Positions 1 through 38,105 of a stretch of DNA of 64,000 nt are shown here, piece after piece. Both the position numbers and the translations under genes were made by a program. Source of the DNA: Escherichia coli (lineage in GTDB: Bacteria > Pseudomonadota > Gammaproteobacteria > Enterobacterales > Enterobacteriaceae); the NCBI RefSeq assembly GCF_051903065.1, contig NZ_CP178438.1. One strand, 5' to 3'. The notes beneath the pieces are model-generated. The model did not search any database. It had not been told where the DNA came from and saw only the letters and a program-made list of their open reading frames with translations. How positions within the stretch are numbered: position 1 is the stretch's first letter; each line of letters starts with the position of its first letter.

Positions 1-692
1 ATCAGTGTTTGCGGTTCTGATGGATAGTGCTTGCGCGCATAACTCAATTTATCGTTGTCGGTATCGGTAATGACGAGCAGCGACGGGTTAACGGGTCCAT
101 GTAGCGCATAATCAATCGCCAACAGTCCCATTGGTCCGGTGCCGCCGAGGATCAGCGTGCGCCCTTGCGGGCGAATCCCCATCGTGTGGTTATAACTACC
201 TTCCTGAAGATGATAGTTGGCGTTGAACGCGCCAATCACGCAGGAAAGCGGTTCAACCAGCGAGCCTTCAAAGTAGGTTTCGCCTTCGTATGCCAGCAGG
301 CAATCTTGTTCCATAACCTCATTTGGGATAACCACATGTGTGGCTTCACCACCCACCCACGGGAAGGAGTAGCCGGGGCAGTCCGGGCGGTCGGGGAGTT
401 GCAGGTTGGCCTGAATCACATAACGCTGACCCGGCTGGAATTTGTGCTGCCACTTTTTACCCACGGCCAGAATATCGCCGCAAAACTCGTGGCCGATGAT
501 GATTGGGTTGGTCGCCACATCGTCGGGTACTTTTTTATGGTTTTCACCCAGGTTGGCCTCTTTCCAGGAAGAGAGGCACAGGCTGTCAGTGACCACCGTC
601 GCGAGGATTTCATCCTCCTGCATTTCAGGAAGGTCAAAGGTTTCCAGGCGTAAATCACGTTTACCATAAAGACGCAGAGCTGTTGTTTTCAT
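1..692 (-). CDS. sorE: Sorbose-1-phosphate reductase-like zinc-dependent dehydrogenase, N-terminal part (gene continues beyond window start)
   Basis: Reverse-strand reading from ATG at 692 gives MKTTALRLYGKRDLRLETFDLPEMQEDEILATVVTDSLCLSSW with a GAGGTGG RBS; last gene of a sor-type PTS operon. The + strand ORF 165..653 in the track is antisense to it. Confidence 0.6.
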   Translation of the reverse strand, partial: MKTTALRLYGKRDLRLETFDLPEMQEDEILATVVTDSLCLSSWKEANLGENHKKVPDDVATNPIIIGHEFCGDILAVGKKWQHKFQPGQRYVIQANLQLPDRPDCPGYSFPWVGGEATHVVIPNEVMEQDCLLAYEGETYFEGSLVEPLSCVIGAFNANYHLQEGSYNHTMGIRPQGRTLILGGTGPMGLLAIDYALHGPVNPSLLVITDTDNDKLSYARKHYPSEPQTL

Positions 693-743
693 AAACCACC
701 TCATGTTGAGCGATGGCCCCGGCAGTCGTGCCGGGGCGAAGAA

Positions 744-1598
744 TCAGGACAGGAAGCCCAGCGCATTGCCGATAATCCCTAAGCCAAACAGGGCGAAAAT
801 CAGCCATACCGGGTTAATTTTTTTGTTGAGCAGACGAACCATTAGTAGCGTCAGACCGAGCGCCAGCAAACCAGGGCAAAGTTGATCGAGAATGTTCTGC
901 ACGGTCATGGTGACGGTGGAGCCATCAGCGGCATGCGTTTGTGAAACCACCAACGGTACGTTGATTGACGTCCATTTGGTGACCAGCACGCCCATCACAA
1001 ACAGTCCGAGAATCGACGCGCCTTCGGTGAGTTTTTGCAGCACATTCCCGCCCATATCGCTGACGATATTCACCCCTTTGCGAAAGCCGAGCTGTAGGCC
1101 ATACCACTTCATCGCCAGACGCACCGCGTTGAAAATAAAGAAGAACAGCCGCGGGCCGAGAATGTTGCCCGAAAGTGCCAGAGATGCGCCGAGCGCGGCG
1201 GTAATCGTGCGCAGCGTTCCCCAGACCAGTGGATCGCCAACCCCTGCCAACGGTCCCATCAGACCGACTTTGATGCCGTTAATGGTACCGTCATCAATTT
1301 CCGCGCCGTTGGCCCGCGCCTCTTCCATGGCGGCAGTGACGCCGATGACCGGGCCACATACGGCTGGCGTGGTATTGAAGAACACCAGGTGTCGCCTGAG
1401 CGCCGCAACCTGATCCTCTTTTAATGGGTAAAGTCGCTTGATGGCGGGGATCATGTCGTAGCAAAAACCCAGCCCGTGAATACGTTCAAAGTTAAAGGAC
1501 GCCTGTTGCAGGTTGGAGCGCAGAAACATGCTCACCAGATCGCCGCGTGTAATTTTTCTCTGTTCCATGATGGCTCCGTTAATCGTCAAGTTGGTCAA
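744..1598 (-). CDS. sorM: PTS mannose/sorbose-family EIID component
   Basis: 284-aa ORF; overlaps the EIIC gene upstream; recognised as an EIID-type membrane protein by eye; operon context. Confidence 0.8.
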   Translation of the reverse strand: MTNLTINGAIMEQRKITRGDLVSMFLRSNLQQASFNFERIHGLGFCYDMIPAIKRLYPLKEDQVAALRRHLVFFNTTPAVCGPVIGVTAAMEEARANGAEIDDGTINGIKVGLMGPLAGVGDPLVWGTLRTITAALGASLALSGNILGPRLFFFIFNAVRLAMKWYGLQLGFRKGVNIVSDMGGNVLQKLTEGASILGLFVMGVLVTKWTSINVPLVVSQTHAADGSTVTMTVQNILDQLCPGLLALGLTLLMVRLLNKKINPVWLIFALFGLGIIGNALGFLS

Positions 1599-2376
1599 GG
1601 GCGGTGGAAGCGGGGGCCTGGAGTTGAGGTTCAGCTTTACGCCACTGTGGATTTAGCTGGATGTAGACCAGGGCCATGATCACGCCGACGCCACCGAACG
1701 CCAGCAGACTGAGATCGAGGTAGCCACCTGCGAGGAAACCGAGGAAAAAGAAAGGCATCAAATATTTCACGCCCATCATACGTAGCACCATGGCGTAACC
1801 GACCACCACGATAAAACCGCCAGCAATCTGTAGTCCTCGGGTCACAAATTCGGGAATGGCGTTTAACATATTGCTCACCATATCGGCGCTGACGAACAGC
1901 GAGACAATCAGTGCCGGAACAGCAACGCGCAGCGCCTGCACGCCAAGCGCGGAGACATGCAGAATATCGAGAGTGCGAAACCGTGCCTCTTCCGCTGCTT
2001 TATCCGCCGCGTGCTGGAACACTACGGTGATGGTACGTGCAAACACCGTCAGCACCTGGCCTGCCGCAGCCACAGGCAACGCGATGGCGATTCCGGTGGC
2101 GATGCTTTGCTGACCAACGATAACCAGAATGGCGGAGATTATGCTGGCGAGTGCAGAATCCGGAGATTGCGCCGCGCCGACGTTCATCCAGCCGAGAGCT
2201 ATCAATTCCAGCGTACCACCGAGTATTATTCCGGTTTTTAAATCACCGAGAATTAAACCAATCACCGTACAGGCAATTAACGGGCGATGAGTCTGGAATT
2301 CATCCAGCACGCTGCCCATTCCGGCAATACAGGAAAAAAGAAATATAGCAATAATTTGTAGGGTACTTATTTCCAT
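1579..2376 (-). CDS. sorA: PTS mannose/sorbose-family EIIC component
   Basis: 265-aa hydrophobic ORF between the EIIB and EIID genes. Confidence 0.8.
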   Translation of the reverse strand: MEISTLQIIAIFLFSCIAGMGSVLDEFQTHRPLIACTVIGLILGDLKTGIILGGTLELIALGWMNVGAAQSPDSALASIISAILVIVGQQSIATGIAIALPVAAAGQVLTVFARTITVVFQHAADKAAEEARFRTLDILHVSALGVQALRVAVPALIVSLFVSADMVSNMLNAIPEFVTRGLQIAGGFIVVVGYAMVLRMMGVKYLMPFFFLGFLAGGYLDLSLLAFGGVGVIMALVYIQLNPQWRKAEPQLQAPASTALDQLDD

Positions 2377-2441
2377 GATTTGTCACCTTTTAAGTGTCGT
2401 CATCCCTGCCTGTTAAAGCATATGTACACAGGCGCTATTAT

Positions 2442-2936
2442 TTAATTTGCGATTAACTGTTCGTTTATTTTGTCGATAATATTGATTGAGGGATCTGACG
2501 CTACGACGCGTAAATCCAGTATGACGCCAAGATTATTTAACTCATGAAATGCGTTAATATCATCATCATCTAATGAAACCGCTTTGGTTAACTGTTTTTT
2601 ACCGGGCCGCCAGGCCATGCCGCCAATATTTAGGGTGCCTATTTTTACCCCCTGGCGAACCATCGCTAAGGCATCCTGTGGGCGAGTGAAAAGATAAAAA
2701 ACGGTTTCGTCCTGATATTGCGGGTTGTGATAAACCGCGACGGCTTTTTCAATATTGACCACGTTAACCTTCATTCCCGGTGGCGCAGCCTGACGCAATA
2801 ATGTCCGGCGAACTTCATCGTTATAAACTTCGTCATTGCAGATAATAATGCGCTGGGCGTTAGCCACTTTCGACCAGACGGTAGTGACCTGACCGTGGAT
2901 CAGGCGGTCATCAATGCGGGCGAGCGTAATGTTCAT
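2442..2936 (-). CDS. sorB: PTS mannose/sorbose-family EIIB component
   Basis: 164-aa ORF with N-terminal MNITLARIDDRLIHGQVTT (phospho-histidine motif of mannose-family EIIB). Confidence 0.8.
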   Translation of the reverse strand: MNITLARIDDRLIHGQVTTVWSKVANAQRIIICNDEVYNDEVRRTLLRQAAPPGMKVNVVNIEKAVAVYHNPQYQDETVFYLFTRPQDALAMVRQGVKIGTLNIGGMAWRPGKKQLTKAVSLDDDDINAFHELNNLGVILDLRVVASDPSINIIDKINEQLIAN

Positions 2937-3343
2937 CAGAAATCCTCCTCTGTCGTTGCCAGTTGTTTCCAGACAACGCAGGTTTGCTTTGCGATTTGCG
3001 TCAGGTGTTCACACAGTTCATCAACATTCATGCTGTCCTGGTTATCAACCAGTTCGAGCGCCAGCGGCAGAGAAAGTCCGCTGATTACCCGCAGACGAGG
3101 ATTGCGCATCGCAAGCATCGCTGCCGCATTCCACGGGCTGCCGCACTGTAAATCCACGGCAATCAGCCACTCATCTTGATTGTGAATGCTTACTAACTTT
3201 TCCAGCTTTGCTACGATGTCTCCGGCGTTCTCGCCGGGCACAAATTCAACGGCTTCAACATTGGCGTTGCCGTAAACCATCTGAACCGATTCCAGCATGG
3301 CGCAAGCTAATTTGCCGTGGGCACAAAAAATGGCGTTGACCAT
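2936..3343 (-). CDS. sorF: PTS mannose/sorbose-family EIIA component
   Basis: 135-aa ORF MVNAIFCAHGKLA...; start overlaps the stop of the EIIB gene. Confidence 0.75.
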   Translation of the reverse strand: MVNAIFCAHGKLACAMLESVQMVYGNANVEAVEFVPGENAGDIVAKLEKLVSIHNQDEWLIAVDLQCGSPWNAAAMLAMRNPRLRVISGLSLPLALELVDNQDSMNVDELCEHLTQIAKQTCVVWKQLATTEEDF

Positions 3344-3352
3344 AAAGCCTCC

Positions 3353-4159
3353 TTAGCCGCGCGTTTTGCCGCCCGCAATGTTAGTGGTTACTCCGGTGAT
3401 ATAGCTGGCGCGTTCAGACAGCAGATAACAAACAAAATCAGCGACTTCTGCTAATCTTCCGGCGCGCCCAATAGGAATGGCGTTTTTGGTATAGCCTTCA
3501 CGCAGCTGCTCGACGGTGATATTGCGCGTCCACGCCAGCGCTTCTTCATATTCCGGCGTGCGTAGCCCGGTTTTTTCCAGAATCCCCGGCGCGATACCGA
3601 CTACACGGATACCGTGTTTACCCAATTCTTTCGACCAGGATCGCGTGAAGCTATTAAGCGCGGCTTTGGTAGCGGCGTAACAGCTTTGTCCTTCTGAGCC
3701 TTCCAGCCCACTTTCTGAGGAAACATTCACAATCACGCCATCATGTTGTTTGACCATCTGTCGCGCCACCGCCTGCGACATCAGAAAAACGCCTTTCTGG
3801 TTGATATTGACCATTTTTTCGAATGCAGCTTCGTTGAGTTCATACTGCCCGGCAGGCGCTTTCTCATCGACCAGCAGACGCGGGAAATTGACCCCGGCGT
3901 TATTGACCAGACCGTCGATGCGACCAAAACGCTGGATAATTTCCGCTACCGTATGATTTACCTCTTTGGCGCTGGAAATATCGGTCGGCCAAAACTGATA
4001 GCCTTTATGAACTTCATATTGACCATCGCCACCGTGAATATCTACCATCTGTACGTTTGCGCCTTGTGCTAATAATTCCTCTACAATAGCCAGACCAATA
4101 CCGGATGCGCCGCCGGTGACGATAATGATTTTATCCTGCAAATTTAACCACGTTTGCAT
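3353..4159 (-). CDS. sorD: Short-chain dehydrogenase/reductase (sorbitol-6-phosphate dehydrogenase-like)
   Basis: 268-aa ORF with Rossmann motif TGGASGIGLA near the N-terminus. Confidence 0.75.
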   Translation of the reverse strand: MQTWLNLQDKIIIVTGGASGIGLAIVEELLAQGANVQMVDIHGGDGQYEVHKGYQFWPTDISSAKEVNHTVAEIIQRFGRIDGLVNNAGVNFPRLLVDEKAPAGQYELNEAAFEKMVNINQKGVFLMSQAVARQMVKQHDGVIVNVSSESGLEGSEGQSCYAATKAALNSFTRSWSKELGKHGIRVVGIAPGILEKTGLRTPEYEEALAWTRNITVEQLREGYTKNAIPIGRAGRLAEVADFVCYLLSERASYITGVTTNIAGGKTRG

Positions 4160-4228
4160 AACAGACTCCTGATTTTAGATAATAGGGACCCGCCGTAATT
4201 TTTATTACGGTAAACATCGGGAAGATTT

Positions 4229-5176
4229 TTATTTCAGTAATAGTTCAGCTGTGCTGCTATTCGTTACCAGACAATTAATATATTTTCCACGCAGTGCACC
4301 AATAATTCCGCTGTATTTTTCTTCACTCATGGCAATGCCAATGGAATATCGTGCCTGCTTTAATTTATTCATTTCGATAGAGAGTGTTTTTTCGCTCATA
4401 TTCGTTTCAACCATTGCGCCGTGAATATCAAAAAAGCGCGAGCAAATATCGCCAGCAACCTGGCGGGCATTCAGGTCGTCACTCTCTTCACCACCATAAA
4501 ACGCATGCCAGTTAGCGCCGTCGCGAATGGCCGGTGAGCCAATTCCCACCAGGGCGACATCCAGATTATCCCAGTAGGCAGAGATGGTTTTAAAGTGCTG
4601 AGACTGCATGATCCCATTACGAATTAATGGGTTATCCAGTAGAGCCGGAAAATCCGCGAGGTGCGATTCCCCTTTCAGCTTCGCTGCCGCGCTGTAGGTT
4701 AATGTGTTTACGTGATAGCGGCTTTCGAGTTTACCGGACGGTCCGCCAATAATTGGTACGCAGATTAACTGCCGCGATTGCCCCGCCTGCGGCAAGTTTT
4801 CAACCAGTGCGCTCACCGCGCGACCCCAGGAAAAACCGACAATATCGCCAGGCTCCAGCAAGCGATCCAGCAGTTGCGCGCCGTGTAACCCCATCATCGC
4901 CAGTTGAGTCTCTTCATCCTCATCATTTCCCGACACCACCACAACGTCTTTCAGGCCAAACTTTTGCTTCAGTTGCTGCTCCAGCCAGAGATTTTCGTTG
5001 TAGTCATAGTTGATGGCGATGGTGACAATTCCCTGATCGCGGCCTCGTTTAAGCAAGCGGCTGATGGTGGTGCGGTAAATACCCAGTTCGCGCGCGATTT
5101 GCGCCTGCGTCATATCCTGTTCGTAATAGAGTTGGGCAATCTTCACAATCAAACGGATATCGTCACTGTTTTCCAT
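4229..5176 (-). CDS. sorC: SorC-family transcriptional regulator
   Basis: ORF 4229..5260 in track; start placed at internal ATG (MENSDDIRLIV...) preceded by AGGAGG RBS; HTH segment QIARELGIYRTTISRLL followed by a sugar-binding domain. Confidence 0.75.
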   Translation of the reverse strand: MENSDDIRLIVKIAQLYYEQDMTQAQIARELGIYRTTISRLLKRGRDQGIVTIAINYDYNENLWLEQQLKQKFGLKDVVVVSGNDEDEETQLAMMGLHGAQLLDRLLEPGDIVGFSWGRAVSALVENLPQAGQSRQLICVPIIGGPSGKLESRYHVNTLTYSAAAKLKGESHLADFPALLDNPLIRNGIMQSQHFKTISAYWDNLDVALVGIGSPAIRDGANWHAFYGGEESDDLNARQVAGDICSRFFDIHGAMVETNMSEKTLSIEMNKLKQARYSIGIAMSEEKYSGIIGALRGKYINCLVTNSSTAELLLK

Positions 5177-5523
5177 TGCCGCCTCCTGGTTCTGCACATT
5201 TGTGCAAATACGCTTTCTCACCGCTTGATCTGATATAACCCCATCATGATGGCCTTTCAAAGCGATTTTTCACTCTTTGCATGGGGAGAAATAGCGCTTT
5301 CTCTTGCACATTTGTTTCTCTGCGCAGTAGTCATCAGCACAGGTGTGCGGAGATTCGTAATAGGTTGATTATCCTTATTTTGCCAGGCAAATTTGCATTG
5401 TACTTCCGGAGACACTTTTGTGATAAAAGGCGTGGCAGATCACATTTAATTTCGACGTTGCCGCATAACCCTGTTTTTCCCCGCTAAGAGGTACGGTATA
5501 TTCCGCGTTTTACAGGAGAATTT

Positions 5524-6396
5524 ATGCTGCCCGACTCATCAGTCCGTTTAAATAAATACATCAGCGAAAGCGGAATTTGCTCACGCCGCGAAGCGGATCG
5601 CTATATCGAGCAAGGCAATGTGTTCCTTAATGGCAAGCGAGCCACCATTGGCGATCAGGTGAAACCCGGCGACGTTGTGAAAGTAAACGGTCAGTTGATT
5701 GAACCTCGGGAAGCCGAAGATTTGGTACTTATCGCCCTGAACAAGCCCGTCGGTATTGTCAGCACCACCGAAGATGGCGAGCGCGATAACATTGTCGATT
5801 TTGTTAACCACAGCAAACGCGTGTTCCCGATTGGCCGCCTGGATAAAGACTCCCAGGGGCTGATTTTCCTCACCAATCACGGCGATCTGGTGAATAAGAT
5901 CCTCCGTGCGGGTAACGATCATGAGAAAGAGTATCTGGTGACGGTCGATAAACCGATTACCGATGAATTTATTCGTGGTATGGGGGCGGGGGTGCCGATC
6001 CTCGGGACGGTGACTAAAAAGTGCAAAGTCAAAAAAGAAGCGCCGTTTGTCTTCCGCATTACCCTGGTGCAGGGGCTGAACCGTCAGATCCGGCGCATGT
6101 GCGAGCATTTCGGCTATGAAGTGAAAAAGCTGGAACGCACGCGCATCATGAACGTTAGCTTAAGCGGCATTCCGCTGGGGGAATGGCGCGATTTAACCGA
6201 CGATGAGTTAATCGACCTCTTTAAGCTCATTGAAAATTCCTCTTCCGAGGCAAAACCTAAAGCGAAGGCTAAACCGAAAACGGCGGGCATCAAACGCCCG
6301 GTGGTGAAGGTAGAAAAAACGGCGGAGAAAGGTGGCCGCCCGGCATCAAACGGCAAGCGTTTCGCCTCGCCGGGGCGGAAGAAAAAAGGTCGTTAA
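5524..6396 (+). CDS. rluF: 23S rRNA pseudouridine synthase F
   Basis: 290-aa ORF with S4-like N-terminus and RluF-like sequence throughout. Confidence 0.9.
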
Positions 6397-6669
6397 TCAG
6401 CGTTTGCCGCGCGTCGACGTATTTGCCGACCAACTGAATGACGCTTCAGGATCCGGTTTATAAGCCTGCTTTTTCTTTAACTGGCGGGCTTTTTTCGCTT
6501 CAGCCTCACGCTCGACCATTAATTTATCGATGTACTCTTTCTTAATGCTGTTGGTTTCGGAGTTGGTCAGTACGCGACCATGCGCAATCCGCGCCCGATC
6601 CAGCAGTGTTTTAAGTTCACGCTGCTCGCGTTCAGTCATCTCTTTTTGGGTAATACGGGGGAGTGCCAT
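6397..6669 (-). CDS. yjbD: Small conserved protein YjbD (DUF3811-like)
   Basis: 90-aa ORF MALPRITQKEMTEREQRELK...; convergent with rluF; expected position upstream of lysC. Confidence 0.7.
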   Translation of the reverse strand: MALPRITQKEMTEREQRELKTLLDRARIAHGRVLTNSETNSIKKEYIDKLMVEREAEAKKARQLKKKQAYKPDPEASFSWSANTSTRGKR

Positions 6670-6921
6670 GATGGTGCCCTCAGTGAGCCAGAGAGTTCAG
6701 TGTACGGGAATTCGTTTGCGAGCAGAACTGATAATATTCATTTTGCCTTCTCTTAACTATTTATCTCTTTCGATAATTAATTAGAGATGCAGATAAAAAA
6801 ATTAAAGGCAATTATTCTCCGATAAAGACGCTGGTTAACAGAGTACAGGCTCGTTTATTGATGAGCATAGTGACAAGAAAATCAATACGGCCCGAAATAT
6901 AGCTTCCAGGCCATACAGTAT

Positions 6922-8271
6922 TTACTCAAACAAATTACTATGCAGTTTTTGTACCACCTGCTCGGCATCTTCGCCGGGCACCAGGAAGCACAGGTTATGG
7001 CTGGATGCGCCGTAACAAATCATGCGAATGTTGAACGGTTCCAGTACGCCGAATACCTCTTTGCCAACGCCGCAGGCTTTTGACAGGTCATTGCCAATCA
7101 ACGCGACCAGCGCCAGACCTTCTTCCACCTCCACCCGGCACAGTGCGGAAAGCTCCATCAGCAGAGATTGCGTTAGCAACGTATCGCCAGTGGAGGTTGA
7201 ACCGGTGGTATCAAGGGTTAATGCCACGCTCACTTCTGACGTGGTGATTAAGTCTACCGAAATATTATGCCGCGCGAGGATGCCGAAAACTTCCGCGAGG
7301 AAACCGCGAGAATGCAGCATATTCAGGCTGTGCAAAGTGAGCAGAGTCTGATTGCGACGAAGCGCCAGCGCGCGGAACAGCGGCGGATTTTCAGTTTTAT
7401 TGCACACCAGCGTACCACCTGCGCGTGGGTCTTTGCTGGAGCCGACAAAGACCGGGATATCGCTGCGTACTGCGGGTAGCAACGTTGCCGGATGCAGTAC
7501 TTTTGCACCAAAAGTTGCCATCTCTGCCGCTTCGGCAAACGCGATTTCATCAATGCGTTTTGCTGCGGAAACCACGCGTGGATCGGTGGTGTAGATGCCC
7601 GGGACGTCGGTCCAGATATCAACACGAGATGCGTGTAAAGCCTCCGCCAGCAAGGCTGCCGTATAATCGCTGCCTCCACGGCCAAGCGTCGTTGTTCGAC
7701 CTTTATTTTCGCTACCGATAAATCCCTGGGTGATCACTAAGCCTTCATTGAGGCGTGGGAGCAGCTGCAGCGCGGCCAGTTCCGCCAGCGCGGCTACATC
7801 TGGCTCTGCACGACCAAATCGGTCGTTGGTACGCATCACTTTACGTACATCAAACCACTGTGCCTGAACATCGCGTTCGCGCAGGATCTCAACAAACAGC
7901 AGGGTCGACATCAGCTCGCCGTGGCTGACCAGTTCATCTGTCAGCGCCGGAGACGTTGCCAGCGCCGCCGCTTCTGCCAGAACAGTAATGTTCTCCAGCA
8001 GACGTTCAATCTCTTCACGGATAACGTTCGGGTAACGCAGACGTTCCAGAATGGCAAACTGGATATTGCGGATTGCGTCGAGTTTTTCGAATCGCTCGCC
8101 AGGTTCCAGTCCTTCCGCTAAAGCGACCAGCAGATTAGTGATACCAGCAGAAGCCGAGAGGACAACTAAACGCACGTTGGCATCAGAAAGCACAATATCA
8201 GCGCTGCGGTTCATGGCGTCAAAATCAGCTACGCTGGTACCGCCAAATTTGGAGACAACAATTTCAGACAT
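6922..8271 (-). CDS. lysC: Lysine-sensitive aspartokinase III
   Basis: 449-aa ORF MSEIVVSKFGGTSVADFDAM... (aspartokinase N-terminus), ACT domains at C-terminus. Confidence 0.95.
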   Translation of the reverse strand: MSEIVVSKFGGTSVADFDAMNRSADIVLSDANVRLVVLSASAGITNLLVALAEGLEPGERFEKLDAIRNIQFAILERLRYPNVIREEIERLLENITVLAEAAALATSPALTDELVSHGELMSTLLFVEILRERDVQAQWFDVRKVMRTNDRFGRAEPDVAALAELAALQLLPRLNEGLVITQGFIGSENKGRTTTLGRGGSDYTAALLAEALHASRVDIWTDVPGIYTTDPRVVSAAKRIDEIAFAEAAEMATFGAKVLHPATLLPAVRSDIPVFVGSSKDPRAGGTLVCNKTENPPLFRALALRRNQTLLTLHSLNMLHSRGFLAEVFGILARHNISVDLITTSEVSVALTLDTTGSTSTGDTLLTQSLLMELSALCRVEVEEGLALVALIGNDLSKACGVGKEVFGVLEPFNIRMICYGASSHNLCFLVPGEDAEQVVQKLHSNLFE

Positions 8272-8560
8272 AACTACCTCGTGTCAGGGGATCCATTTTC
8301 AGCCTTGGCACAAGGGAAGAGCGGAAGACGGGTGGGCGCAGAGCGATACTTCGCTACTATTTTCACCCAGAAGTGCTCCACCACTTGCGAAACGCCCGAC
8401 TGCGAACGCTTCTGGTGACAACCCAGGGGATTCAGCCCCTGTAGCCGATGATGAACGTGGCCAGCCGTTCAATCACCTCGGCGATGCACCCCCTCAGGTG
8501 TTATCACAGGACTGGCTCCTCCAACACCGTTACTTGGGCAACGCGCCTCTTCTGGCCTGC
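8272..8560 (-). promoter_or_regulatory. lysC leader containing lysine riboswitch (LYS element)
   Basis: About 290 nt GC-rich untranslated leader directly upstream of the lysC start; matches the known position of the lysine riboswitch; boundaries approximate. Confidence 0.65.
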
Positions 8561-8795
8561 GCTAGCGCAGGTAGTACATTTATAAATAAAGGGTGAGCGG
8601 GGCGGTTGTCAACGACGGGGTCATGCGGATTTTTCATCCACTCCTGGCGGTCAGTAGTTCAGCTAATAAATGCTTCACTGCGCTAAGGGTTTACACTCAA
8701 CATTACGCTAACGGCACTAAAACCATCACATTTTTCTGTGACTGGCGCTACAATCTTCCAAAGTCACAATTCTCAAAATCAGAAGAGTATTGCTA

Positions 8796-10445
8796 ATGAA
8801 AAACATCAATCCAACGCAGACCGCTGCCTGGCAGGCACTACAGAAACACTTCGATGAAATGAAAGACGTTACGATCGCCGATCTTTTTGCTAAAGACGGC
8901 GATCGTTTTTCTAAGTTCTCCGCAACCTTCGACGATCAGATGCTGGTGGATTACTCCAAAAACCGCATCACTGAAGAGACGCTGGCGAAATTACAAGATC
9001 TGGCGAAAGAGTGCGATCTGGCGGGCGCGATTAAGTCGATGTTCTCTGGCGAGAAGATCAACCGCACTGAAAACCGCGCCGTGCTGCACGTAGCGCTGCG
9101 TAACCGTAGCAATACCCCGATTCTGGTTGATGGCAAAGACGTAATGCCGGAAGTCAACGCGGTGCTGGAGAAGATGAAAACCTTCTCACAAGCGATTATC
9201 TCCGGTGAGTGGAAGGGTTATACCGGCAAAGCAATCACTGACGTAGTGAACATCGGGATCGGCGGTTCTGACCTCGGCCCGTACATGGTGACCGAAGCAC
9301 TGCGTCCGTACAAAAATCACCTGAACATGCACTTTGTTTCTAACGTCGATGGGACTCACATCGCGGAAGTGCTGAAAAAAGTAAACCCGGAAACCACGCT
9401 GTTCCTGGTAGCATCTAAAACCTTCACCACTCAGGAAACCATGACCAACGCCCATAGCGCGCGTGACTGGTTCCTGAAAGCGGCAGGTGATGAAAAACAC
9501 GTTGCGAAACACTTTGCGGCGCTCTCAACCAATGCCAAAGCCGTTGGCGAGTTTGGTATTGATACTGCCAACATGTTCGAGTTCTGGGACTGGGTCGGTG
9601 GCCGTTACTCTTTGTGGTCAGCGATTGGCCTGTCGATTGTTCTCTCCATCGGCTTTGATAACTTCGTTGAACTGCTTTCTGGCGCACACGCGATGGACAA
9701 GCATTTCTCCACCACGCCTGCCGAGAAAAACCTGCCTGTCCTGCTGGCGCTGATTGGCATCTGGTACAACAATTTCTTTGGTGCGGAAACTGAAGCGATT
9801 CTGCCGTATGACCAGTATATGCACCGTTTTGCGGCGTACTTCCAGCAGGGCAATATGGAGTCCAACGGTAAGTATGTTGACCGTAACGGTAACGTTGTGG
9901 ATTACCAGACTGGCCCGATTATCTGGGGTGAACCAGGCACTAACGGTCAGCACGCGTTCTACCAGCTGATCCACCAGGGAACCAAAATGGTACCGTGCGA
10001 TTTCATCGCTCCGGCTATCACCCATAACCCGCTCTCTGATCACCACCAGAAACTGCTGTCTAACTTCTTCGCCCAGACCGAAGCGCTGGCGTTTGGTAAA
10101 TCCCGCGAAGTGGTTGAGCAGGAATATCGCGATCAGGGTAAAGATCCGGCAACGCTTGACTACGTGGTGCCGTTCAAAGTGTTCGAAGGTAACCGCCCGA
10201 CCAACTCTATCCTGTTGCGCGAAATCACTCCGTTCAGCCTGGGTGCGTTGATTGCGCTGTATGAGCACAAAATCTTTACTCAGGGCGTGATCCTGAACAT
10301 CTTCACCTTCGACCAGTGGGGCGTGGAACTGGGTAAACAGCTGGCGAACCGTATTCTGCCAGAGCTGAAAGATGATAAAGAAATCAGCAGCCACGATAGC
10401 TCGACCAATGGTCTGATTAACCGCTATAAAGCGTGGCGCGGTTAA
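8796..10445 (+). CDS. pgi: Glucose-6-phosphate isomerase
   Basis: ORF 8790..10445; start taken at [15 protein letters not shown]; diagnostic PGI sequence throughout. Confidence 0.95.
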
Positions 10446-10570
<125 letters not shown>

Positions 10571-10615
10571 TCGTATTCGGCAATTAATGCATAGCACGAT
10601 TAATTAAATAACCTT

Positions 10616-10650
10616 AAAAACAATGCCGACTATAAGTCGGCATTGTTTTA
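10616..10650 (+). terminator. Rho-independent terminator downstream of pgi
   Basis: Hairpin caatgccgac...gtcggcattg followed by TTTTA. Confidence 0.6.
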
Positions 10651-10957
10651 TCAGATAAATCTCCTTGTCTGTGATTTAACGGAAATCATACCGTGAGGTT
10701 AATCCTAAAATAGATTTTTAATCGTGATTTATTTCGGAAAATACTCAGATTAATTACTTTTGCTTTTATTTTAACACTATGATTTTTAATGTTATTTATA
10801 TATAAGTTGTAGCTTATATTTGATATTCATTCCAATTATCCTAAAACCCCATCTCTAATTCCCCGCGCCGTAATTCGCATGCTTTAGTTGTGTATACTCG
10901 ATCCCGCCCGAAATGTTTTTGGGTAAATCTCCATTCATTCAATGAAGGGAAATTGTT

Positions 10958-11200
10958 ATGAAAAAAGTTCTGTATGGCATTTTTGCCATATCTGCGCTTG
11001 CGGCGACTTCTGCGTGGGCTGCACCTGTACAGGTGGGCGAAGCGGCAGGGTCGGCAGCAACGTCGGTTTCGGCGGGTAGTTCCTCCGCGACCAGCGTCAG
11101 CACCGTAAGCTCGGCGGTGGGTGTCGCGCTCGCGGCAACCGGTGGCGGTGATGGTTCTAATACCGGGACCACAACAACCACGACCACCAGTACCCAGTAA
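10958..11200 (+). CDS. yjbE: Small secreted Ala/Ser/Thr/Gly-rich protein
   Basis: 80-aa ORF with signal peptide and low-complexity body; RBS GGGAAATTGTT upstream; first gene of the yjbEFGH cluster. Confidence 0.75.
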
Positions 11201-11313
11201 TAAAGTATGTATCCCCAAAATAATTCGAGTCATCGCATCTGTGGCTTGAAGTATGAAGGGATTTACCATAACCACACTCCGGTGTGGTTATTCTGCCCCT
11301 CTGGAGAAGAGTC

Positions 11314-11952
11314 GTGAAGCGACCTGCACTCATTCTTATCTGCCTGCTATTACAGGCCTGTTCAGCCACGACTAAAGAGCTGGGCAATTCACTGTGGGAC
11401 AGTCTGTTCGGTACGCCAGGTGTACAGCTGACGGACGATGATATTCAAAATATGCCCTACGCCAGCCAGTACATGCAGCTTAATGGCGGGCCGCAGTTGT
11501 TTGTGGTGCTGGCCTTCGCTGAAGACGGACAACAAAAATGGGTCACTCAGGATCAGGCCACTCTCGTCACACAACATGGTCGTCTGGTGAAGACTCTGCT
11601 TGGCGGCGACAACTTGATTGAGGTGAATAACCTTGCCGCCGACCCGCTGATTAAACCCGCACAAATCATTGATGGTGCAACCTGGACGCGCACGATGGGC
11701 TGGACCGAGTACCAGCAGGTACGCTACGCCACCGCACGCTCAGTCTTCAAATGGGATGGCACCGATACCGTCAAGGTCGGCAGCGATGAAACCCCGGTTC
11801 GCGTGCTGGACGAAGAAGTCTCCACCGACCAGGCGCGCTGGCATAACCGCTACTGGATCGACAGCGAAGGGCAAATTCGCCAGTCGGAACAGTATCTCGG
11901 CGCGGATTATTTCCCGGTGAAAACCACCCTCATCAAGGCGGCAAAACAATGA
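11314..11952 (+). CDS. yjbF: Lipoprotein YjbF
   Basis: ORF 11284..11952; lipobox LLLQAC; start probably GTG at 11314 (VKRPALILICLLLQACSATT). Confidence 0.75.
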   Translation: MKRPALILICLLLQACSATTKELGNSLWDSLFGTPGVQLTDDDIQNMPYASQYMQLNGGPQLFVVLAFAEDGQQKWVTQDQATLVTQHGRLVKTLLGGDNLIEVNNLAADPLIKPAQIIDGATWTRTMGWTEYQQVRYATARSVFKWDGTDTVKVGSDETPVRVLDEEVSTDQARWHNRYWIDSEGQIRQSEQYLGADYFPVKTTLIKAAKQ

Positions 11953-20139: not shown

Positions 20140-20280
20140 CATTCCAGGACGGATAAGGCTTTCACGCCTTATCCGACAACAACTGCCTGATGCGACGCTG
20201 ACGCGTCTTATCAGACCTACATACGTTTCGGTTTTGTAGGCCGGACAAGGCGTTCACGCCGCATCCGGCATTTCACAGCA
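20140..20280. repeat. REP/BIME repeats in malE-malF intergenic region
   Basis: ggataaggc...gccttatccg and gccggacaaggcgttcacgccgcatccggca palindromic units. Confidence 0.7.
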
Positions 20281-24369: not shown

Positions 24370-24500
<131 letters not shown>

Positions 24501-37689: not shown

Positions 37690-38105
37690 CGGATTATCAG
37701 CCATACAGGAAAGGAACTGTGCTTGCCCCAACTGGGCCATGCAATCATCTTCATGTGATTTGTAATGATCCTGTTTATTACCCCGTTAACGATTGTTATT
37801 GTGTTTTAGTTGTTAATATTTCTAGTATCAAGGATGGTGTCCCCCACGATCCGTCTTGCGTCTTGAATTCTGGTGATCATCGCTTTATCAAGCATCCAAG
37901 TTATGTTGTTTACGCTGAAGCTATAATTTGGCGAGTGGATAACATGGTTAGAAAGCAGCGATCGGGTGAGATTTCTGTTCATGATGATATGCCAGAAGCT
38001 ACATTCAATAGAATTCTGGACGGTTTTGATATCTCTGATGAAGTTACGCCAAAGAACCTTAAATTTAAAAATAAATATTGCGTATCATCTATTGATGATG
38101 AGTAA
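37686..38105 (+). CDS. Hypothetical 139-aa protein translationally coupled to the Panacea-like gene (candidate toxin/effector)
   Basis: ATGA start/stop overlap at 37686-37689; no family recognised; Cys/His cluster CNHLHVICND...DCYC. Confidence 0.5.
   Translation: MTDYQPYRKGTVLAPTGPCNHLHVICNDPVYYPVNDCYCVLVVNISSIKDGVPHDPSCVLNSGDHRFIKHPSYVVYAEAIIWRVDNMVRKQRSGEISVHDDMPEATFNRILDGFDISDEVTPKNLKFKNKYCVSSIDDE

Follow-up and report, generated by a model that had tools for sequence, protein, structure and literature searches.

Analysis of a 64,000-nucleotide stretch of Escherichia coli DNA (contig NZ_CP178438.1, assembly GCF_051903065.1; hereafter the window) indicates that positions 1-5523 hold the chromosomal E. 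coli L-sorbose operon, sorCDFBAME, together with its control region. The operon lies between pepE and rluF, at a site of which an empty allele, most likely arisen by deletion or spread by recombination, also exists. We hold this conclusion with high confidence. Gene content, gene order, intactness, orthology, the positions of the phospho-histidines and the distribution in the population were all observed directly.

The open reading frame (ORF) list and its translations give seven minus-strand reading frames in the order sorC-D-F-B-A-M-E, separated by short spacers (Table 1). Divergent from sorC, across a spacer of 347 bp, lies rluF, followed by yjbD, lysC and pgi. An earlier note, made from the sequence alone, had described a complete sorCDFBAM(E) arrangement next to rluF at 1-5260. 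The neighbouring gene was correctly named and all seven genes are present in that order, but completeness holds for six of them (sorC, sorD, sorF, sorB, sorA and sorM, all intact), whereas sorE runs off the start of the window with 230 of its 409 codons inside. The operon was also correctly located, but position 5260 is the end of the longest possible ORF, read from a TTG codon. The start of sorC is instead the ATG at 5176, since residue 1 of the protein aligns with residue 1 of the structure 2W48 and the RefSeq start agrees. A palindrome invariant across genera (5192-5208) falls within the supposed N-terminal extension of SorC.

The regulator, the short-chain dehydrogenase/reductase (SDR), the four enzyme II (EII) subunits and the reductase named in the earlier note each carry the expected NCBIfam and Pfam domains. 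The proteins of the phosphotransferase system (PTS) and the SDR protein match their family profiles with E-values of 1e-44 to 1e-151, so chance matches are not an issue. IIA, IIB, IIC and IID are four separate subunits that match over their full length and above the cutoffs of TIGR00824 (EIIA-man; SorF, 1e-43), TIGR00854 (SorB, 1.5e-66), TIGR00822 (EII-Sor; SorA, 2.5e-127) and TIGR00828 (EIID; SorM, 1.4e-139), and the RefSeq annotation of an identical genome agrees with the coordinates of sorM. SorD matches NF004817, sorbitol-6-phosphate dehydrogenase subunit, at 6.6e-151 (501 bits against a curated cutoff of 304), and its translation shows the TGGASGIG and YAATK motifs. SorC, of the SorC/DeoR type, combines an N-terminal helix-turn-helix (HTH) with a sugar-phosphate-binding domain (Pfam Sugar-bind, 3e-80). 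The translation of SorE begins MKTTALRLYGKRDL; its N-terminal part is the GroES-like domain of a zinc-type alcohol dehydrogenase (Pfam ADH_N) and contains a GHEFCG stretch. The public genome NZ_AP045789, which is 100% identical over window positions 1-11523, carries a full 409-aa gene annotated sorE, L-sorbose 1-phosphate reductase. The locus shows three characters of sor operons of the Klebsiella/E. coli type: the gene order, a four-subunit EII with phospho-histidines, and a predicted medium-chain (MDR-type) reductase paired with a predicted SDR-type dehydrogenase. The minus-strand genes are strongly supported, and plus-strand ORFs that overlie them (e.g. 165-653 and 892-1413) were regarded as their antisense shadows. 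When the whole window was scanned with Rfam, no RNA family was found within 1-5523.

Table 1. Features of the sor locus and some others in the window, with the evidence for each.
Feature	Position	Strand	Basis or remark
sorE, L-sorbose-1-phosphate reductase, 5' part	1..692	-	230/409 codons; window edge cuts gene
sorM, EIID membrane subunit of sorbose PTS permease, 274 aa	744..1568	-	NCBIfam TIGR00828, Pfam EIID-AGA, RefSeq
sorA, EIIC membrane subunit, 265 aa	1579..2376	-	NCBIfam TIGR00822 EII-Sor, Pfam EII-Sor
sorB, EIIB phosphocarrier subunit, 164 aa	2442..2936	-	NCBIfam TIGR00854; PDB 1NRZ
sorF, EIIA subunit, 135 aa	2936..3343	-	NCBIfam TIGR00824 EIIA-man
sorD, D-glucitol(sorbitol)-6-phosphate dehydrogenase, SDR, 268 aa	3353..4159	-	NCBIfam NF004817, Pfam adh_short
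sorC, SorC-family regulator, 315 aa	4229..5176	-	Pfam HTH and Sugar-bind; 2W48 alignment
sorC-rluF divergent control region	5177..5523	.	spacer alignment, 13 loci
invariant palindrome CTGCACATTTGTGCAAA / TTTGCACAAATGTGCAG	5192-5208		spacer alignment; 16 nt upstream of sorC ATG
conserved block CTTGATCTGATATAACC / GGTTATATCAGATCAAG	5224-5240		spacer alignment
TGCACA/TGTGCA-type box TTGCACATTTG	5304-5314		spacer alignment
TGCACA/TGTGCA-type box GCACAGGTGTGC	5337-5348		spacer alignment
TGCACA/TGTGCA-type box ACACTTTTGTG	5412-5422		spacer alignment
further conserved block CAGATCACATT	5436-5446		spacer alignment
right-hand edge of sor-specific segment	5489..5523	+	first K-12-shared sequence (blastn); 35 bp upstream of rluF ATG
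rluF	5524-6396	opposite to sor genes	equivalog 1e-182
lysine riboswitch ahead of lysC, three naRNA4 (REP-derived), STnc430 downstream of pgi	8363-8559, 10475-10546, 10612-10761, 20147-20217, 24376-24446		Rfam gathering score

The closest characterised relative is the K. pneumoniae sor system (Sprenger and Lengeler 1984; Wohrl, Wehmeier and Lengeler 1990, as cited in PMC2831201 and PMC12817954), which has the same seven genes in the same order and the same predicted pathway; the window holds its E. coli orthologue. Full-length alignment of SorC with the crystallised K. pneumoniae SorC (2W48; 1-315 on 1-315, E 1.4e-183) gives an identity of about 88%, and a similar value, again about 88%, holds for SorB and the K. 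pneumoniae sorbose-specific IIB over 160 residues (PDB 1NRZ; 1-160, E 5.6e-91). The histidine of the SorB RLIHGQV motif (His15) is present and aligned with 1NRZ, and the N-terminal histidine of SorF (FCAHGKLA) is in register with solved mannose-family IIA domains. The direct Klebsiella comparison covers SorC and SorB; the remaining Sor proteins are 86-95% identical to those of a Klebsiella oxytoca locus (L090). A search of solved structures found no close homologue of SorE or SorD. This lack, for SorE, and the generic scope of the NCBIfam and Pfam EII models, which span mannose, fructose and sorbose, would leave room for a mannose-family PTS with another substrate (fructose, mannose or a sugar derivative) that bears the sorbose name by similarity only. 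We regard this as extremely unlikely, given the identity of SorC and SorB to proteins of the genetically characterised K. pneumoniae operon, the shared seven-gene order, and the fact that orthologous E. coli operons with 96-97% DNA identity confer L-sorbose use or are required for it (PMC2831201; PMC12817954).

Among these E. coli operons, c4981-c4987 of strain CFT073 and the sor operon of sequence types (ST) ST131 and ST648 share locus, genes and neighbours with the window, and the differences are allelic only; B2 strains (H28 and H29) show 96.7-96.8% DNA identity over 1-5523. The nucleotide identity between the CFT073 and K. pneumoniae operons is 78% (PMC2831201). The E. coli mannose PTS, manXYZ, belongs to the same PTS family, with IIA, IIB, IIC and IID functions and histidine phosphorylation on IIB. 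In contrast to manXYZ, the sor system has IIA and IIB as separate polypeptides, and its permease genes stand together with those for a SorC-type regulator and two oxidoreductases of its own.

The proposed pathway follows what is established for the sor systems of Klebsiella and E. coli. By analogy, the phosphoryl group would pass from phosphoenolpyruvate through enzyme I and HPr to a histidine of SorF (EIIA) and on to His15 of SorB (EIIB), and the membrane complex of SorA and SorM (EIIC and EIID) would phosphorylate L-sorbose during translocation to yield L-sorbose-1-phosphate. The four subunits would thus form a mannose-family PTS permease for the uptake and phosphorylation of L-sorbose. SorE is predicted to reduce L-sorbose-1-phosphate to D-glucitol-6-phosphate, and SorD to oxidise the latter to D-fructose-6-phosphate, which would enter glycolysis. 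SorC, encoded by the first gene of the operon, would act as a repressor without sorbose and as an activator with it. For all these biochemical steps, the assignment to the window would follow from the orthology of the genes and from what experiments have shown for orthologous operons.

That the operon is present but inactive, either cryptic or damaged in the part of sorE beyond the window, is very unlikely. The 3' part of sorE does lie outside the window, and sorbose phenotypes vary among pathotypes (PMC2831201), but the six complete genes fit their family profiles end to end without frameshifts, the sorE of NZ_AP045789 is intact, and the control region retains every conserved motif.

Occupied and empty states of the pepE-rluF site

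To describe the distribution of the operon, we counted as carriers those among 5426 complete E. coli genomes that matched window positions 1-5523 at a coverage of at least 80%. The segment was found in 2865 genomes, always in the chromosome and never on a plasmid. Nearly all carriers have one copy (median 1, highest 3), and their identity to the window segment is mostly 95-99%. A contiguous pepE-rluF junction of the K-12 type occurs in 2556 genomes, and the rluF-lysC flank in 5425. The occupied (about 53%) and empty (about 47%) states together account for 5421 of the 5426 genomes, and the locus is therefore essentially a two-allele polymorphism at one site. These counts bear out the earlier view of the operon as strain-variable and absent from K-12: the comparison shows that it is not carried by every E. 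coli, and in K-12 strain MG1655 the gap between pepE and rluF is 211 bp long and contains no sor genes.

The boundaries of the segment could be placed by comparison with K-12. With blastn, window positions 1-5488 gave no match in K-12 4229000-4300000, and the match of the two sequences starts at 5489. Positions 1-81 and 177-211 of the MG1655 intergenic sequence match the two sides of a 6.3 kb segment in a sor-positive (sor+) genome, and the left-hand edge of this segment, some 82-90 bp past pepE, is not part of the window. The K-12 spacer thus shares its ends with sor+ genomes (the first 81-90 bp on the pepE side and the last 35 bp on the rluF side), and its middle has no counterpart in sor+ E. 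coli. This K-12-specific filler gave only chance-level short matches in one locus (L001) and none in 120 other loci at an E cut-off of 0.01.

Previous surveys agree with a variable distribution. All 4 uropathogenic E. coli (UPEC) strains examined carried the CFT073 operon, as did 7 of the 16 others, and its cloning into DH5alpha, a K-12 derivative, led to growth on L-sorbose (PMC2831201). A study of 22,267 and 44,208 genomes found the operon in >86% of genomes in each phylogroup, with the exception of A (9.56%) and B1 (12.12%), showed by transcriptome and proteome data that L-sorbose induces it, and made sorAM and sorE knock-outs in ST131 and a knock-in at the native site in ST10 (PMC12817954). 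The most divergent operon gene between lineages is sorF (93.1% nucleotide identity to ST131), which fits the description of several sorF clusters in PMC12817954. At the pepE side, strain H9 carries an eighth gene that overlaps the end of sorE and is annotated as shikimate 5-dehydrogenase (L129, 4658-5470); NZ_AP045789, O157 and ST131 have in its place 382 bp of sequence resembling repetitive extragenic palindromic (REP) elements, and in Citrobacter sp. FP75 (L017) about 1.2 kb between sorE and pepE leaves room for a gene like the shikimate dehydrogenase.

For the origin of the two states, species-representative genomes were scanned with a degenerate rluF motif, and the resulting 120 rluF neighbourhoods were queried by tblastn with Sor, PepE and RluF proteins. 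The complete order pepE-sorEMABFDC-rluF-yjbD is present in a Citrobacter locus (L017), in K. oxytoca (L090) and in a divergent Escherichia (L031), whose identity to the window is about 91%. For the loci of Citrobacter and K. oxytoca, most proteins are 86-97% identical, the lowest value being that of SorF in L090 (78%). Four further Citrobacter loci (L008, L027, L074 and L113) show the same sor order beside rluF-yjbD as far as they extend, which does not reach pepE. In Pseudocitrobacter (L028) and Cedecea (L094), sorC adjoins rluF. The operon is missing from many other genera among the 120 neighbourhoods. Within E. coli, the sor genes are 98.3-99.7% identical to those of O157, with pepE at 97.8% and pgi at 99.3%, and 93.1-98.2% identical to those of ST131, with pepE at 95.7% and pgi at 97.6%.

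The presence/absence polymorphism with its sharp boundaries, the REP-like sequence at the pepE-side boundary of sor+ genomes and the enrichment in particular phylogroups (PMC12817954) would all suit a recently gained horizontal genomic island, with the empty site of K-12 as the ancestral state. We consider such a gain unlikely. The segment has no integrase, transposase, tRNA or flanking direct repeat, its guanine plus cytosine content (about 0.51) equals that of its flanks, and it was never found on plasmids. The site and gene order are the same in Citrobacter, K. oxytoca and divergent Escherichia, and from one E. coli lineage to another the sor genes diverge within the same range as the core genes beside them. 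In addition, the two outer parts of the K-12 spacer show homology to occupied Citrobacter loci, to the sequence near pepE and to that near rluF, so that K-12 keeps homology to both edges of the occupied site.

Because signs of mobility are missing, synteny extends to other genera and divergence is like that of the flanks, the comparison of sequences suggests that loss in K-12-type lineages is more likely than recent gain. On the simplest reading, sor would be a long-standing resident of this site, and a deletion would have produced the ancestor of the K-12-type allele; this empty allele possibly then spread by recombination. Since the occupied state is common to other enterobacterial genera, deletion or spread by recombination is the most likely source of the empty site. 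For the same reason of synteny, the term accessory, as applied to the operon in the earlier note, should not be taken to mean a recently acquired island.

The spacer between sorC and rluF

To explore the control region, we aligned the sorC-rluF spacers of 13 loci from six genera (E. coli, Citrobacter, K. oxytoca, Pseudocitrobacter, Cedecea and Kluyvera). The conserved blocks listed in Table 1 are invariant or nearly so, in contrast to the diverged sequence that separates them. A repeat finder also flagged the first three copies of the repeat. These blocks are candidate SorC operators or promoter elements. Only tentatively, and at slightly below an even chance, would we put forward the joint reading that the TGCACA/TGTGCA-type boxes within 5192-5446 form a set of SorC operators and that sor is an ancestral enterobacterial locus deleted in A/B1-type lineages.

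Several observations weigh against our overall interpretation of the locus. A consensus scan of positions 1-7000 for promoters and terminators gave no more sites than shuffled sequence, and therefore no promoter is claimed. The direction of change, loss as opposed to gain, is deduced from synteny in a limited set of species representatives. The 3' 44% of sorE lies beyond the window, so that its intactness rests on the identical public genome NZ_AP045789, and this genome is not the source strain throughout, as its downstream prophage differs.

A hairpin in the 69-bp spacer between sorC and sorD was considered as an attenuator and rejected, its stability being not above that of shuffled sequences (z = -0.34). 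In two Kluyvera loci (L024 and L101) a sorC-like gene (70% identical) adjoins rluF and the palindrome TTTGCACATATGTGCAG is kept upstream, and no further sor gene was detected there at the thresholds used; these loci may hold a remnant, or an operon that is equipped differently. The loci of C. youngae, Citrobacter sp. Cu233 and K. oxytoca (L027, L074 and L090) carry an insertion of about 125 bp directly upstream of rluF, which is missing from the window and which, by eye, resembles a repeat of the enterobacterial repetitive intergenic consensus (ERIC) type.

Other features of the window

Two small differences were seen in and beside rluF. The last 107 nt of the gene (6290-6396) are about 82% identical to the usual alleles (K-12, O157, ST131 and H9), 90.7% identical to one of the other loci (L089) and 87% identical to the divergent Escherichia L031, with two residue changes only in the protein. 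Identity to the usual alleles is 97-98% in the adjacent 190 bp and in yjbD, and the patch looks like a very short recombination event from a divergent Escherichia lineage. In K-12, 139 bp (4231219-4231357) separate the convergent ends of rluF and yjbD; this sequence, probably an REP-type insertion, is missing in the window, where the stop codons abut (6390-6396). Further downstream, the RNA elements given in Table 1 are all expected for the E. coli chromosome in this region.

The window is collinear with K-12 until about 104 bp into dusA, where a prophage begins that occupies 36863-64000, up to the window end, and has no K-12 counterpart over its 27 kb. At the same position NZ_AP045789 carries a prophage of about 39 kb, with a tyrosine integrase beside an intact dusA copy and with genes for a P27-family terminase, a head of the HK97 type and a contractile tail. 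The window prophage is a mosaic relative of this copy, 93-98% identical in blocks and with several segments replaced. One segment that differs from its NZ_AP045789 counterpart is a two-gene cassette at the dusA-proximal end (37117-38105). Its first gene encodes a protein of 190 aa in which Pfam recognises a SocA/Panacea antitoxin domain (2.2e-19). This gene is overlapped by a 139-aa ORF that gave no Pfam or PADLOC match, and the two are possibly a toxin-antitoxin pair of the Panacea type.

Significance of the sor locus

The function and distribution of the sor operon are already known (PMC2831201, PMC12817954). Its genes, its pathway, its map position near metH and pepE, its absence from K-12 and its distribution over phylogroups have all been published, and the use of L-sorbose is a classical variable phenotype of E. 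coli, recently linked to the competitive fitness of high-risk lineages (PMC12817954). To this the present analysis makes modest additions: a count over 5426 complete genomes, precise boundaries of the segment with respect to K-12, synteny with Citrobacter and K. oxytoca, and the candidate operator motifs. For the organism sequenced, the data mean that the source strain is very probably Sor+ and not K-12-like. If it is true that sor is an ancestral locus lost in A/B1-type lineages, this would reverse its framing as a pathogen-enriched marker.

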